56,565 nucleotides of DNA, from assembly GCA_017520675.1 (NCBI GenBank), contig JAFXFG010000003.1, positions 1 to 56,565 on the forward strand, in the 5' to 3' direction. Position numbers and translations under genes: made by a program. A model generated the notes under the pieces. The model had not been told where the DNA came from, did no database searches, and worked only from the letters and a program-made list of their open reading frames with translations. Of this stretch, positions 1 through 5,524 are shown piece after piece. Each line of letters begins with the position of its first letter. Positions within the stretch are counted from its first letter, which is position 1. The stretch is from Alphaproteobacteria bacterium (GTDB taxonomy: Bacteria; Pseudomonadota; Alphaproteobacteria; Rs-D84).

Positions 1-427
1 CTGCGCGGTCTTCGGTCATTGCAGTTGCCAATTGCATACCGCCGATACCCATTGTTGCCATACCCGTTGCGCCCAACATACGATTTTCGAAAGAATTTTC
101 AATTTCTTTCATATTGTCATAGTTTTCTTGCAGTTCGGCAACCTTTTTCTCTTGCGCTTCCTTTATTTTGCTTTTGTCCGTTGTATCTTCATCATCATCA
201 GCAGCAGCAGCATCTTCAGCACCAGCTTGGCTAATAGAGGTGCCTGAAGCTGATGAATCATTTTGGGCTGAGACGTTGACCCCGCTAGCGATTTCAGTGA
301 ATCCGTATTGTCCTAGAATATCGGAAAGACTGCTCTTAAACCCTTCTGAAATTGACGATATGTCGTCGGCATTTGCCACAATCGGGAAAAGTAAGAAAAA
401 TAATAAAAATTTGTATCTGTGTTTCAT
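1..427 (-). CDS. secreted protein, N-terminal part (runs off the left edge)
   Basis: My own minus-strand translation from ATG 427..425 gives MKHRYKFLLFFLLFPIVANADDISSISEGF...GATGMATMGIGGMQLATAMTEDRA. It is open for 142 codons down to position 2. It has a Sec-type signal peptide, an acidic tract and a Gly/Met-rich hydrophobic segment. It is absent from the ORF track because no stop lies inside the window. Confidence 0.6.
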   Translation of the reverse strand, partial: MKHRYKFLLFFLLFPIVANADDISSISEGFKSSLSDILGQYGFTEIASGVNVSAQNDSSASGTSISQAGAEDAAAADDDEDTTDKSKIKEAQEKKVAELQENYDNMKEIENSFENRMLGATGMATMGIGGMQLATAMTEDRA

Positions 428-589
428 TGTTGTTCGTTTAATTCTTTAAGTGCCTTATCCTGTGCTTCGTTGATAGCATTTATTGTTTCGCTTTGTTTAC
501 TGCAGCGTTTTTATTTTCTTCTTCTTTGAGTAGTTGTTTATTTCGTCTATTGTTTCTTTGGTCAGTTTTTTTTATTTCTTTTTATTATA

Positions 590-1177
590 TCAGTTATACT
601 GTTCTTTTCCAAGATCTTTTAATTTCTTTAGCGTATCTTTGGCTAATTCTTCGATTGTTTGAATTAGGTCATCTTTTTTGTCACACGGTGCGTCAGTTTT
701 GTCGTCTGGACATAGTGTTTTTATTTTGCTGGCTGTGTCTGCGACAGCGTCGTTGATTTCTGATTCAATTTGTTTGTATTCATCTATAGTTATTTTTTTT
801 TCTATGCATTTTTCCTCTGTTGCGCTGTATATATATCCAGATTCTGTGCATTCACATAATCCAGATTGCGTATTGAGTGTTTGATCCTTTTTACAATTAC
901 AAATGTATGAATCAGCTATATCTTTACTGATTGGGTCGTAGCTGCCACCAGAGTTTTTGCACGCATCGCGTAATCTGTTGATTCTGTTCTGACGCTCGAA
1001 TTCATTTTCTATGGCGATGTCTTGTGCAGTTTTTGTGCATTTTTTTGATTTTGTGTTGTATTTATATGTTGTGTTGATGCATTCGCAAATGCCTGTGTCT
1101 TTGTTTCTGGTTAGATCCTTATTTTCGTCGCAGTTACATTTTTTGCCATTCCAATCGCCACCAGATGTTTTGCACAT
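590..1177 (-). CDS. Cys-rich ORF with no signal peptide; likely the C-terminal part of the 1574..3361 protein, interrupted by one in-frame TAA
   Basis: Same frame as 1574..3361. I translated 1573..1178 codon by codon and it is open (132 codons, no ATG/GTG/TTG). Contains the motifs CKTSGGDWNGKKCNC and CKNSGGSY. Confidence 0.5.
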   Translation of the reverse strand: MCKTSGGDWNGKKCNCDENKDLTRNKDTGICECINTTYKYNTKSKKCTKTAQDIAIENEFERQNRINRLRDACKNSGGSYDPISKDIADSYICNCKKDQTLNTQSGLCECTESGYIYSATEEKCIEKKITIDEYKQIESEINDAVADTASKIKTLCPDDKTDAPCDKKDDLIQTIEELAKDTLKKLKDLGKEQYN

Positions 1178-1573
1178 TTCTTCTGCTTTGGGATCTTCGC
1201 ATTTATCGATTTTTTTATTATATGTTTCATTGCTGTTTTCACATAGGCATGTTTTTTTATCTTTGCTTTGTTCTAATTTTTTCGTTCTATTGCATTCGCA
1301 TTCTGTCCCGTTCCAGTTACCTCCCGAAGTTGAACAGTTAGTGGAGGTTAGGTCAACTTCTATTTCTTCTTCAACACCATCGTCGTTAAAGTTGCATTTT
1401 GTGTTGTTGGGCAGTTTAAATTCGCATGCAACTGTATTTTTTTTGTGTTTTGCAGAAATGTATTTTGTTTCATCTAATTTTATATCTTCGATAGTTATAA
1501 TTGAGCCGTTTACAGAAATTTTTTCTGCGGGTGTAAAGTTAGATGTTGTTTTGCTAAGAGATATTTGTACATT

Positions 1574-3361: not shown

Positions 3362-3412
3362 TTGTTTACACTATTTGTTTTTTCTGTTTGCACGACGTTA
3401 CTATTGTAATTT

Positions 3413-4639
3413 TTATTGTTCTGTGTCGTCTTCTTCTTGGTCGTTTTTGCTAAATAGTTTTCCAAAAAATGTTTTGCCATTATTGTCAACACATCCGTCT
3501 TTTTTCCATTTGCCACCTTCGGCTGCGCATTCTGCTTTGTTTAATTTTTTCAATTTCTTTTCTTCTTTTTTCAATGCTTTCTTTGCCTTGTGAGTGTCGG
3601 TTGCGCGGTCAATCGCACCAGATGTGATTGCACCAGCCGCCATACCTAAGCCAGAACCCAACATCGCAGATGATGCAGATGTTTGTTCGCGGGTCAGGCG
3701 CATTGCATTCTCCATAAATGTTGTAACATCGATGCCAAACCAGTTTGGCGTGCAATCAAATGTTGAACCAGCATAGCGTTTCTTGGATGCGTATAGTGTG
3801 CCGTCTTCGCCTGCATAAAAGTTTACAGTATAGACACAATCCAATGTGCGTTCGTCAAATGCAGCGCCCAGACGATTGCAGGTTTCAGACATCTTGTCAC
3901 GTAATTCGTATAGGCGTTCTTCGTCGCGTTTGACCATAATTTCTGCGTTCCCACGAAGATTTCCAAATGCCTCCATCGCGCGGGCAGACAGGCCACTGTC
4001 TTGTTCAGTGCAGGATTTTGCAATCTTGGCACATGCAGATATTGCCTTGTCCCCAGCGGATTTGCCAAGACATTTTGTAAATGTTGTGCCACACTGTGTA
4101 ACAATGCAATCGTTGTATTGGTTTCCACAATCAACAATTGAATTGTATAGTGATAATTGTGCGTTTATATCGCGGTCAGCCTTGATTTCAGCAGATAATA
4201 ATTGATATTCATGACCAGTGCAGGGCAGGTCGCGACGGCATGAATCCATCTTGTCCCCCCAGATAGTGTCGCCATCACCGGCGCATTTTGAAAAGTCATC
4301 ACCGCATTTCTTTTTCATACATGTGCGCAGGCCCGAATCGCATGCGTTCGCACCCCCGGATAATGCACGTTGGGCCTGGTCTTTGGCATTGTTTATTGCG
4401 TCAGCAGCATCCAAGGCAGCGCGTTGGGCGCGAATCTTGTCAGCCAATGATGTATCGGCAGTTGAATTTTCTGAGATGCTTTCAGAAAAAATATCATCAA
4501 ATTGTGATGTTTTGTCCTCAATCGGTTCGGCTGAGGCGGGGGTGTTCAAAAATACAGTGCAACACGCACACAGTGTAAAACACAAAAAAACGAAATTATA
4601 ATTTAGTCTTGGGGTAAAAAATTCTTTTATATTTTTCAT
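3413..4639 (-). CDS. secreted Cys-rich protein with C-terminal Gly/Ala-rich hydrophobic segment
   Basis: Hydrophobic N-terminus ending ASAEP. Motifs CDSGLRTCMKKKCGDDFSKC, repeated C-x6-C-x4-6-C units, GSGLGMAAGAITSGAI and CAAEGGKWKKDGC. Confidence 0.75.
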   Translation of the reverse strand: MKNIKEFFTPRLNYNFVFLCFTLCACCTVFLNTPASAEPIEDKTSQFDDIFSESISENSTADTSLADKIRAQRAALDAADAINNAKDQAQRALSGGANACDSGLRTCMKKKCGDDFSKCAGDGDTIWGDKMDSCRRDLPCTGHEYQLLSAEIKADRDINAQLSLYNSIVDCGNQYNDCIVTQCGTTFTKCLGKSAGDKAISACAKIAKSCTEQDSGLSARAMEAFGNLRGNAEIMVKRDEERLYELRDKMSETCNRLGAAFDERTLDCVYTVNFYAGEDGTLYASKKRYAGSTFDCTPNWFGIDVTTFMENAMRLTREQTSASSAMLGSGLGMAAGAITSGAIDRATDTHKAKKALKKEEKKLKKLNKAECAAEGGKWKKDGCVDNNGKTFFGKLFSKNDQEEDDTEQ

Positions 4640-4657
4640 CTTTTATGGTTTCCCTTG

Positions 4658-5524
4658 TTAATCAACAGTTGCGCACGCTGTGTCATAGAATTTGCATAAT
4701 GCATTTGCAGCAGCACGTTCGACAGAGCCAAATTCACCGTCGCATTTGTTTGGCATATTGCGTGCACAAATTGTGCTTATACAATTGTCCTTGGTTGTGC
4801 CATTGGCACAGTTTGTTTTGGCGCTGATTAGTTTTTTGTCGCGTGTCTTTTGATACGATTCGATAAGTTGTGTTAGCGCGGCATCTGTGTTCTTAATTGC
4901 GTTGTCGCGATCATTTATTAATTTCGCACGAATAGATGATACATAGTCATCGCAACCGTCGGCATCGACACTGCATGCGGAAAAGATTTTGTCAAAATCC
5001 GAATCGTTTTTGCAGTTGCGATAGTCTGCCATACATTTAGAATTATTAACCATACATGATTGAATCGCGGATTTACATGATGCTTCTGATTTCTTTTTAC
5101 TGCTGGACTTGATTGTTTTTGTAAGTTGAGCAGATACACCAGCGGCTTTGCACGATTGCTCGATAAGTGAATCGTATGCATCTGTTACATCGTCAGCGGT
5201 ACAACCAGCGACCTTTTTAATGCATTGCTGGGTTGCCCAGGTGTAGCGTTTGCCAGGGTCGGTTGGTGCTTTTTTTAAATCTTTTTCAGAAATATTGTAT
5301 TTCGCAGATGCACCAGCGGAAATACTGCGCATTTTGCTGTTGGGTGGGGTGCCTGCGTTTGATGTGCCGCAATATTGACAACGCGCCGCAGGATTAGATG
5401 ATATGTTTATGGCGCATACAGAATCCAAGCAACGCGTTAAATTCGCACGTGAACACTTTGTGGCTGCGTACGTGTCATGGGCAATTAAGATTGCAGGTAT
5501 TAAAATTAATGTTCGTAAATTCAT
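4658..5524 (-). CDS. secreted Cys-rich protein
   Basis: Start moved to the ATG at 5524, giving signal peptide MNLRTLILIPAILIAHDTYAATKC. The longer track ORF would run through the promoter. Motif CSRANLTRCLDSVC and many C-x6-C units. Confidence 0.7.
   Translation of the reverse strand: MNLRTLILIPAILIAHDTYAATKCSRANLTRCLDSVCAINISSNPAARCQYCGTSNAGTPPNSKMRSISAGASAKYNISEKDLKKAPTDPGKRYTWATQQCIKKVAGCTADDVTDAYDSLIEQSCKAAGVSAQLTKTIKSSSKKKSEASCKSAIQSCMVNNSKCMADYRNCKNDSDFDKIFSACSVDADGCDDYVSSIRAKLINDRDNAIKNTDAALTQLIESYQKTRDKKLISAKTNCANGTTKDNCISTICARNMPNKCDGEFGSVERAAANALCKFYDTACATVD

Follow-up and report, generated by a model that had tools for sequence, protein, structure and literature searches.

The stretch analysed here, positions 1 to 56,565 of contig JAFXFG010000003.1 (assembly GCA_017520675.1) and referred to as the window, carries at its low-numbered end a compact cluster of four co-directional minus-strand genes for secreted proteins: g288, g408, g923 and the 5' end of a fourth gene that runs off the window (Table 1). 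They are separated by intergenic gaps of 18, 51 and 162 nt, the last of these before the fourth gene. All four N-termini read as Sec signals: basic residues at the start lead into a hydrophobic core and a cleavage site of the AxA type (predicted cleavage sites ...TYA/AT, ...ASA/EP, ...SYA/AI and ...ANA/DD). The initial annotation had described five cysteine-rich open reading frames here; it placed all the frames and the 18- and 51-nt gaps correctly, and their common strand, close spacing and secretion stand, but the genes number four, as the open frame 590..1573 is the back half of g923. This also explains why it found signal peptides on all the frames except that one.

The source organism, a member of the order Rs-D84 of the Alphaproteobacteria, is Candidatus Enterousia, which inhabits the gut, is uncultured and has less than 1 Mb of genome. 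According to the 2025 description of the genus (PMC12306168), Enterousia genomes measure ~0.75-1.0 Mb, lack a respiratory chain and complete pathways for amino acids, for nucleotides and for fatty acids, and retain the genes for peptidoglycan synthesis and rod shape; the organism is portrayed as a strict fermenter and predicted to be an obligate symbiont or parasite. The cluster proteins are unannotated "hypothetical" entries, and a literature search found no paper on them.

Table 1. Features of the cysteine-rich gene cluster and its upstream region, in window coordinates
Feature	Position	Strand	Remarks
Fourth gene, 5' part	1..427	-	142 codons; predicted signal peptide, acidic low-complexity region, conserved ENSFENRMLGATGMATMGIGGMQLA; runs off the window
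Possible internal promoter before the fourth gene	584..612	-	TTGGAA-17-TATAAT with TG; 10/12, consensus match alone
g923	590..3361	-	one 923-codon gene; predicted secreted, 42 Cys; window copy broken at codon 596 by TAA
C-terminal helical hairpin of g923	593..787	-	Cys pair in loop (CPDDKTDAPC)
GGxW modules 2, 3 and 4 of g923	1196..1342, 1034..1180, 797..967 (span 797..1342)	-	from hidden Markov model (HMM) and sequence
In-frame TAA splitting g923	1574..1576	-	AAA (Lys596) elsewhere
Two small beta-rich repeats of g923	1781..2365	-	residues ~333-400 and ~468-527; internal Cys pair in each
GGxW module 1 of g923 (DLCEKSGGDWEQNTCNCEKYGMEYNKQKLRCT)	2495..2590	-	HMM domain score 38.3
g408	3413..4639	-	408 residues; predicted secreted
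Half GGxW module in the g408 tail (ECAAEGGKWKKDGC)	3488..3535	-	2 Cys, without the CxC...C part
Glycine-zipper-like hydrophobic segment of g408 (LGSGLGMAAGAITSGAIDRA)	3605..3673	-	boundary of conserved core and hypervariable tail
g288	4658..5524	-	288 residues; predicted secreted, 20 Cys; conserved core gene
Ribosome-binding site of g288	5533..5527	-	AGAGAGA; ATG at 5524
Cluster promoter (predicted)	5546..5574	-	TTGCTT 5574..5569, 17-nt spacer, extended -10 TGtTATAAT 5554..5546 (TATAAT 5551..5546)
Divergent promoter of gene 5657..6427 (predicted)	5596..5624	+	TTGACA-17-TATTAT, 11/12; back to back with the cluster promoter

The first two genes are the conserved ones. We recovered 741 homologues of g288 and 934 of g408, with identities of 54-99% and 58-100%, respectively, among the best 120 listed. 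All 20 cysteines of g288 are invariant in the alignment of its homologues (alignment A2), and the homologues place its start at the ATG at 5524 rather than at an upstream TTG at 5602. In g408 a helical, cysteine-rich core (residues ~95-260), which contains 15 invariant cysteines (alignment A1), is followed by a conserved beta-rich region (residues 260-310); next come a hydrophobic segment rich in Gly and Ala, a helix rich in Lys and Glu, and a tail that varies. Both proteins are predicted to be mainly helical, and their cysteines are often spaced C-x6-C-x4-6-C-x6-C. The AlphaFold model of g408 averages 62 in predicted local distance difference test score (pLDDT); across residues 101-210 of the core, all modelled as alpha-helix, the block means lie at 77-88 and mostly at 83-88. 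A Foldseek search of the PDB with this model returned nothing with E<2, which, the confidence of the model being moderate, does not show a new fold. Comparison of g288 with Pfam, NCBIfam and PDB sequences likewise gave no match, and judging from sequence and model the g288-like and g408-like proteins appear to form two large families without sequence or fold relatives among solved structures.

The hydrophobic segment of g408, LGSGLGMAAGAITSGAIDRA, marks a sharp boundary: homologues can be aligned up to it, and beyond it their tails differ completely between species. Within the segment G328, G330, G332, G336, S340, G341 and R345 are invariant (alignment A1), and a membrane role may be suggested from its composition, with the glycine-zipper Pfam models (e.g. 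PF05433 and PF13488) giving no match to g408 at E<=0.1 or to the neighbouring g751 at E<=10. The tails of the g408 family consist of charged low-complexity runs, with or without one to several copies of a small cysteine module; full copies are present in 16 of 80 tails, and the half copy in the window's own g408 went undetected by the module HMM at E<=10.

This module, which we term the GGxW module, is the recurrent element of the variable part of the locus. Its head had been noticed in the initial annotation as a C-x-x-G-G-x-W motif common to all the frames. Each of the five motif strings quoted there is present in frame, but the actual spacing is C-x3-GG-x-W, and the motif forms the head of a ~31-residue unit with four cysteines, xxC-x3-GG-x-W-x4-6-C-x-C-x2-4-G-x-[WFY]-[ND]-x4-6-C (overall tail C-x-C-x8-14-C), in which C3, W10, C15, C17 and C31 are invariant across 27 instances. 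Nor does it unify the cluster: its carriers are g923, with four copies, and g408, with one two-cysteine half-module, and it is absent from g288 and from the visible 142 residues of the fourth product, which had been called cysteine-rich and contain no cysteine at all. Against the four copies in g923, shuffling its residues 20,000 times gave 0.0017 copies on average, and a six-frame nucleotide shuffle of the whole window yielded the motif at a mean of 0.39. The motif also proved significant in profile searches: a profile of the module run against 1.84 billion representative proteins recovered 85 proteins at E<=1e-3, 19 of which reach E<=1e-10. Some of these are unrelated to the locus and match the profile over 4 to 15 stretches each, with as many as 15 copies in tandem, such as high-GC hexapeptide-repeat proteins, an AT-rich Big_1-domain protein and a lipoprotein. 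No Pfam model covers the module, even in these multi-copy proteins. More generally, nothing significant came from scanning every cluster protein, and the modules in isolation, against Pfam and NCBIfam, and we set aside sub-threshold matches to MVL, FlgM, CBM_14, TIL and TNFR_nem as cross-matches typical of cysteine-rich sequence. PDB searches with the g408, g288, module and g751-family profiles returned nothing below E=0.1, the only PDB sequence match to the module being the epidermal growth factor (EGF) domain of protein S at a non-significant E=0.11.

Besides the g408 tails, the module occurs in genes inserted into the locus, in the variable N-terminal part of one protein of the OmpA-domain family to which the fourth gene belongs (see below), and in two giants of the type of the neighbouring gene g751, P0269 (1236 residues) and P0276 (2338 residues). 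In these giants a g751-type N-terminal cysteine-rich region (C..[FY]..CMD.[FY]C) precedes many GGxW modules and other EGF-like units. This distribution bears out the initial suggestion that modules are shuffled between genes, and supports an exchange of modules between genes of the locus in different species. An AlphaFold model of residues 597-923 of g923 (window 590..1573) predicts for each module a short helix with the first cysteine and then beta-hairpins, with pLDDT block means of 78-94. On sequence and model the module appears EGF-like in kind; we do not file it as an EGF domain because it has four rather than six fixed cysteines and passed no profile test. The GGxW module is a real repeat without a prior model, and by sequence comparison the module and the specific families are new, while modular cysteine-rich bacterial surface or envelope proteins with EGF-like repeats are an already known kind.

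The principal carrier of the module, g923, is interrupted in the window. The frames 1574..3361 (595 residues) and 590..1573 are in the same frame and are separated solely by the TAA at 1574-1576; the latter opens with AAT GTA right after this codon and has no start codon before an ATG at 1177. We compared the window with three other metagenome contigs that encode an identical 408-residue g408 protein (L001, L003 and L005): over 2772 nt it differs from them at one base, which changes AAA (Lys596) to TAA. Similarly, four independent gut-metagenome runs (X1, X2, X5 and X8) have T at plus-strand position 1576 at full contig depth, which is the AAA form. Because a single base differs, and AAA stands in the three contigs and the four runs, we treat the two frames as one gene, which automatic annotation of the window would cut into two. 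The TAA of the window is a nonsense change or a base-call error; were the stop real, the product would be a 595-residue protein without modules 2-4. Programmed readthrough or an alternative code was ruled out, as the housekeeping genes of the window read normally in translation table 11 and the codon is AAA elsewhere.

The complete g923 opens with a signal peptide and an N-terminal domain. GGxW module 1 comes next, then a pair of beta-sandwich repeats and a Cys-knot/beta region, and the protein finishes with GGxW modules 2-4 and a helical hairpin; it has no hydrophobic anchor and no match in Pfam. The two repeats are joined by a VELPDEL/Lys-rich low-complexity linker, and the second is absent from most homologues. 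Modules 2-4 each have an added CxC-x12-14-C hairpin unit, and in module 4 the W is replaced by Y and nine residues are inserted. The helices of the terminal hairpin (263-287 and 297-326 in the model) have pLDDT block means of 81-94 save for the last few residues, and C884 and C893 are invariant among homologues. Only 12 homologues of g923 were detected, and they differ by whole-module insertions and deletions, both whole modules and whole beta-sandwich repeats being present or absent between members. A 688-residue version (L006/P0122), identical to g923 for 668 residues and then divergent, was considered as a natural module swap and rejected on account of a GC-rich, foreign-looking contig end (5800-5943); it is probably a chimeric assembly. 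The VELPDELVELPDELYEL/Lys-rich linker (1990-2106) draws short contigs of other organisms, so that the DNA runs as well as the RNA runs show spikes in depth and false joints there.

The visible product of the fourth gene is 43-51% identical to the N-terminal parts of two longer proteins, of 559 (L009; 43%) and 616 residues (L008). Full-length members of this family range from 310 to 1588 residues and are mostly cysteine-rich, with up to 113 cysteines. Each of the four that were scanned against Pfam (L009, L012, L020 and L056) has a terminal OmpA domain scoring 29.8-51.1 bits, above the cut-off of 27.2, and one of them, L012, has PDB sequence matches to TssL1 and to OmpA peptidoglycan-binding domains. 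By this relationship the fourth gene appears to be a member of a family ending in an OmpA-type peptidoglycan-binding domain. In four independent runs the assembly graphs branch at window positions 112-141 and bases 1-141 stand at ~2x the depth of the rest, and no contig found with the locus extends past this gene, all of them breaking off within it; the genome probably has two copies of the ENSFENRMLGATGMATMGIGGMQLA-coding stretch, one of them in a paralogue.

Scanning species-representative genomes, with each species entered once, gave relatives of g288 in at least 253 genomes. The 80 records listed are labelled Candidatus Enterousia or uncultured Alphaproteobacteria, save three labelled "uncultured proteobacterium" and one labelled "bacterium"; where an isolate name indicates its origin, this is the gut of goat, sheep, deer, yak, buffalo, cattle or chicken, and one record has the label of a Hadza (human) sample. 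We compared gene order across 80 loci, each from the genome of a different species. The usual order is g288, then g408, then a large gene of the OmpA-domain family, with mostly short gaps, and a minority of loci, this window included, have an extra variable gene before the last one. Genes at this inserted position in other species often encode CarboxypepD_reg-type beta-sandwiches; one that is not an orthologue of g923 (locus L044) has such a domain above threshold, at 58 bits. Across these loci, conserved cores with invariant cysteines contrast with hypervariable tails and a hypervariable inserted gene. A mobile or phage origin of the locus was ruled out by its core-gene surroundings and conserved synteny.

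Upstream of g288 the initial annotation had proposed a strong TTGCTT-17-TATAAT promoter. The site exists, although "strong" is not justified from sequence: the -35 element matches the consensus at three of six positions, and the site was therefore missed by a consensus promoter scan. We aligned the upstream regions of 10 species whose g288 proteins are 58-80% identical to that of the window. The TG-N-TATAAT element and the GAGAGA ribosome-binding site are invariant within diverged surrounding sequence, and in the -35-like TTGC the T, T and C are invariant and the G is kept in nine of the ten. The site thus has the marks of a sigma-70 extended -10 promoter, namely TGn, TATAAT, a -35-like element at 17 nt, conservation and a position just upstream of the gene, and because it is conserved across species the comparison offers good evidence for what is likely to be a working cluster promoter. 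The hexamers of the divergent promoter coincide with conserved ATAGACAAA...TTTGTCAA blocks in the same alignment. A scan of the minus strand found no terminator-like sites between the cluster genes, which are on the same strand, closely spaced and kept in order in 80 species, as expected of an operon. One gut metatranscriptome yielded two short contigs, both inside g408 (3641-3801 and 3979-4229), and no junction-spanning contigs; there is thus some transcription of g408 in this sample.

Further cysteine-rich genes lie beyond the cluster. Three of them, g693, g751 and g845, are clear paralogues (BLASTP E of 1e-23 to 9e-56) and make up a family at 11549-18814, to which the initial annotation had linked g288 and g408 through a shared cysteine signature. 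Weak by BLASTP (E~0.01) and at 12-44% probability in hhalign with small profiles, the link reaches 74-76% probability with profiles of 44-80 rows (E~3e-5, 142-173 columns), against 0.1-4% for a control with the unrelated neighbour family g1245; for g408 against g288 the probability is 61%. The shared unit is a repeated C-x6-C-x4-6-C-[GM]-x2-[FWY]-x2-C on predicted helices, and on this profile evidence g288 and g408 probably share a distant common origin with the 11549-18814 family.

Within that family, the C-terminus of g693 (11549-13630), ...NAECEKHDGQWIQYDN..., resembles the GGxW head and the g408 tail at a BLASTP E of ~1, and the module HMM did not detect it. The end of g751 (14000-16255; residues ~675-735) has a Gly-rich double hydrophobic stretch, AAAGGLSAGASAGTMVSPGWGTAIGGIVGAVGAGIMGASAAG, with the look of a glycine-zipper hairpin and no Pfam match. 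Between the family and the cluster, the gene 5657-6427 encodes 256 residues that include a hydrophobic segment at the N-terminus and a region resembling a coiled coil, 6543-10280 a 1245-residue secreted protein with a weak ankyrin-repeat match near its N-terminus and no other family match, and 10769-11485 a 238-residue secreted protein with 9 cysteines and no family match. Among the 80 loci, these three genes have 50, 75 and 22 matching ORFs, respectively, and the first two are syntenic with the cluster in most species. A tyrosine-recombinase (phage-integrase-type) gene lies at 21493-22506 (minus strand) between lepA and fabF, with core genes around it.

The region is the promoter-proximal part of a conserved chromosomal locus. 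Taken together, we favour, with a probability of roughly 0.55, the view that this locus encodes Sec-exported, disulfide-rich proteins of the cell envelope or surface, built from a conserved scaffold and variable, outward modules. The conserved proteins would form a periplasm- or outer-membrane-associated scaffold that is tied to peptidoglycan and stabilised by disulfides, and the variable, module-bearing parts would face outward and make contact by adhesion or by binding of ligands or glycans. The partners in such contacts would be other cells, or host material, needed by a metabolically dependent bacterium, and gain, loss and exchange of modules would diversify the surface. The disulfides are suggested by the invariant, mostly even-numbered cysteines and by the predicted fold. 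What the initial annotation observed was confirmed in part, and its interpretation of the cluster as a modular extracellular system is partly supported, the extracellular location being a prediction from sequence.

Several points weigh against this view of an envelope scaffold with outward modules. Surface exposure, peptidoglycan binding and adhesion are themselves predicted properties, the cluster proteins have no match among characterised families in Pfam, NCBIfam, the PDB or the fold search, and the predicted OmpA domain of the fourth gene lies outside the window. The putative operon is drawn from spacing and synteny. No Dsb-type or thiol-oxidase gene was seen in the window, and the bacterium is a strict fermenter (PMC12306168). 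The mature g408 core has an odd count of invariant cysteines, and the Lys-rich stretch after its hydrophobic Gly-rich segment would normally indicate an inner-membrane anchor with a cytoplasmic tail, a prediction that conflicts with an outside location of the tail and its cysteine module. The AlphaFold models of g408 and of g923 residues 597-923 were built on shallow alignments, of 11 and 42 rows. Finally, the folds that Foldseek places nearest to the module model, namely Pfs25, the calcium-binding EGF domains (cbEGF) of fibrillin, LRP2 and class C G-protein-coupled receptors (mGlu and calcium-sensing receptors), are all tandem EGF or cysteine-rich hairpin stacks, at a best E of 0.048, which is not significant, and with low template-modelling scores.

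The same observations may be read in other ways. The proteins could be effectors or toxin-like factors, released freely to act on the host or on partner cells and not belonging to the producer's own envelope, as would suit the Sec signal peptides on all of them, the lack of a hydrophobic anchor in g923, the fast, module-wise evolution of g923 and the tails (as in many effectors and adhesins) and the predicted dependence of the organism on other cells. We consider this unlikely: the 54-99% identity of g288 and the g408 core in hundreds of species, no cysteine being lost, is better fitted by a structural role, and the OmpA-type peptidoglycan-binding protein that ends the cluster, the Gly-rich hydrophobic segments in g408, g751 and the OmpA-family proteins, and the Pfam and NCBIfam scans, which found no toxin or enzyme domain, argue in the same direction. 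Equally doubtful is a more far-reaching proposal in which the ~19 kb of cysteine-rich secreted genes formed by the cluster with g238, g693, g751 and g845, a striking share of a genome below 1 Mb, would build a dedicated, disulfide-cross-linked envelope lattice or an attachment organelle with which this obligately partner-dependent bacterium fastens onto other cells, and the GGxW module would represent a new family of domains that bind ligands, perhaps glycans, and are swapped between genes to change partner specificity.

The chemistry of the cysteines has also to be considered, as they might serve in metal binding or redox functions (periplasmic metal storage or thiol buffering) instead of forming structural disulfides. 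Their spacings (CxC...G-aromatic...C and helix C-x6-C pairs) are of the type seen in disulfide-stapled hairpins, the hairpin units that AlphaFold predicts are compact and of high confidence, conserved His, Asp or Met ligands are lacking among the module's invariant columns, and in high-GC environmental bacteria the module sits on surface-type scaffolds (Big_1 and hexapeptide-repeat). We therefore regard a metal or redox role as improbable, more so than that of effectors, even allowing that DsbB-type oxidation may be absent from a strict anaerobe without a respiratory chain, that the cysteine density is very high (5-7%) and that the invariant cysteines of the g408 core are odd in number. As for decay of the cluster into pseudogenes, or chance frames with a motif born of composition, the premature stop in the window's g923, the very A-rich minus strand and the absence of known domains are outweighed by hundreds of full-length homologues with invariant residues, a conserved promoter, ribosome-binding site and gene order, the four motif copies against the shuffled expectation given above, and an intact g923 in seven other assemblies or runs; the conservation pattern also excludes mis-called opposite-strand frames. 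This explanation is largely refuted.

An envelope scaffold with exchangeable outward modules would be of interest for this lineage in particular. Members of Enterousia and of the order Rs-D84 occur widely in the guts of animals and humans and are believed to live off other cells. In surface structures that face a partner or a host one would expect just such a pairing of conserved cores with hypervariable parts that swap modules, and the locus is a concrete candidate for the cell-contact machinery of the lineage, the function being inferred. The GGxW module and the g288-like and g408-like families are ready targets for structural and binding work.

Comparison with known systems places these proteins near several of them. 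EGF-like domains, as in fibrillin cbEGF, protein S and Pfs25, are small (~30-45 residues), extracellular, disulfide-stapled tandem beta-hairpins, as is predicted of the GGxW module. The segment C-x-C-x2-4-G-x-[WFY]-[ND]-x4-6-C of the module resembles the C4-x-C5...C6 part of EGF, described in PROSITE as C-x-C-x2-[GP]-[FYW]-x4-8-C, and some modules fit this signature exactly (CKCKKGYTLSGTHC in P0023). EGF domains have six conserved cysteines that form three disulfides (1-3, 2-4 and 5-6), whereas the module has four invariant ones and an N-terminal head, C-x3-GG-x-W, on a short helix. The extended modules of g923 do possess six, but in the spacing C-x11-C-x-C-x14-C-x-C-x13-C, which is not that of EGF, and EGF-clan Pfam models gave no match at E<=10 to isolated modules, tandem modules or the whole protein. 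The beta-rich repeats of g923 are similar in length and strand pattern to the CarboxypepD_reg/transthyretin-like domains (PF13620 and PF13715) and align with P0258, a remote relative of g923 that itself scores 24.5 bits for CarboxypepD_reg, below the cut-off of 32.3; they differ in having an internal cysteine pair and no Pfam-threshold match.

The helical proteins invite a different comparison. The C-x6-C-x4-6-C-x6-C arrangement on predicted helices of g288, g408 and the g751-type proteins recalls the twin Cx9C (CHCH) proteins of the mitochondrial intermembrane space and could, by analogy, staple helix pairs with two disulfides, although spacing, context and size differ and there is no sequence or fold match. 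With the OmpA/Pal/TssL proteins (PF00691), the orthologues of the fourth gene share a terminal OmpA domain, as would befit an envelope protein tied to peptidoglycan; unlike them, the family has neither the OmpA beta-barrel nor a lipobox, and instead has an acidic N-terminal region, two Gly-rich hydrophobic segments, a large conserved middle region without known relatives and EGF-like cysteine modules. OmcA and OmcB of chlamydiae are cysteine-rich, Sec-exported envelope proteins of a host-dependent bacterium with a reduced genome. They have no sequence similarity to the proteins of this locus, which gave no match to the Pfam Chlam_OMP model, and Enterousia keeps its genes for peptidoglycan synthesis and rod shape; OmcA and OmcB may nevertheless be a functional analogue for a putative disulfide-cross-linked envelope in Enterousia.

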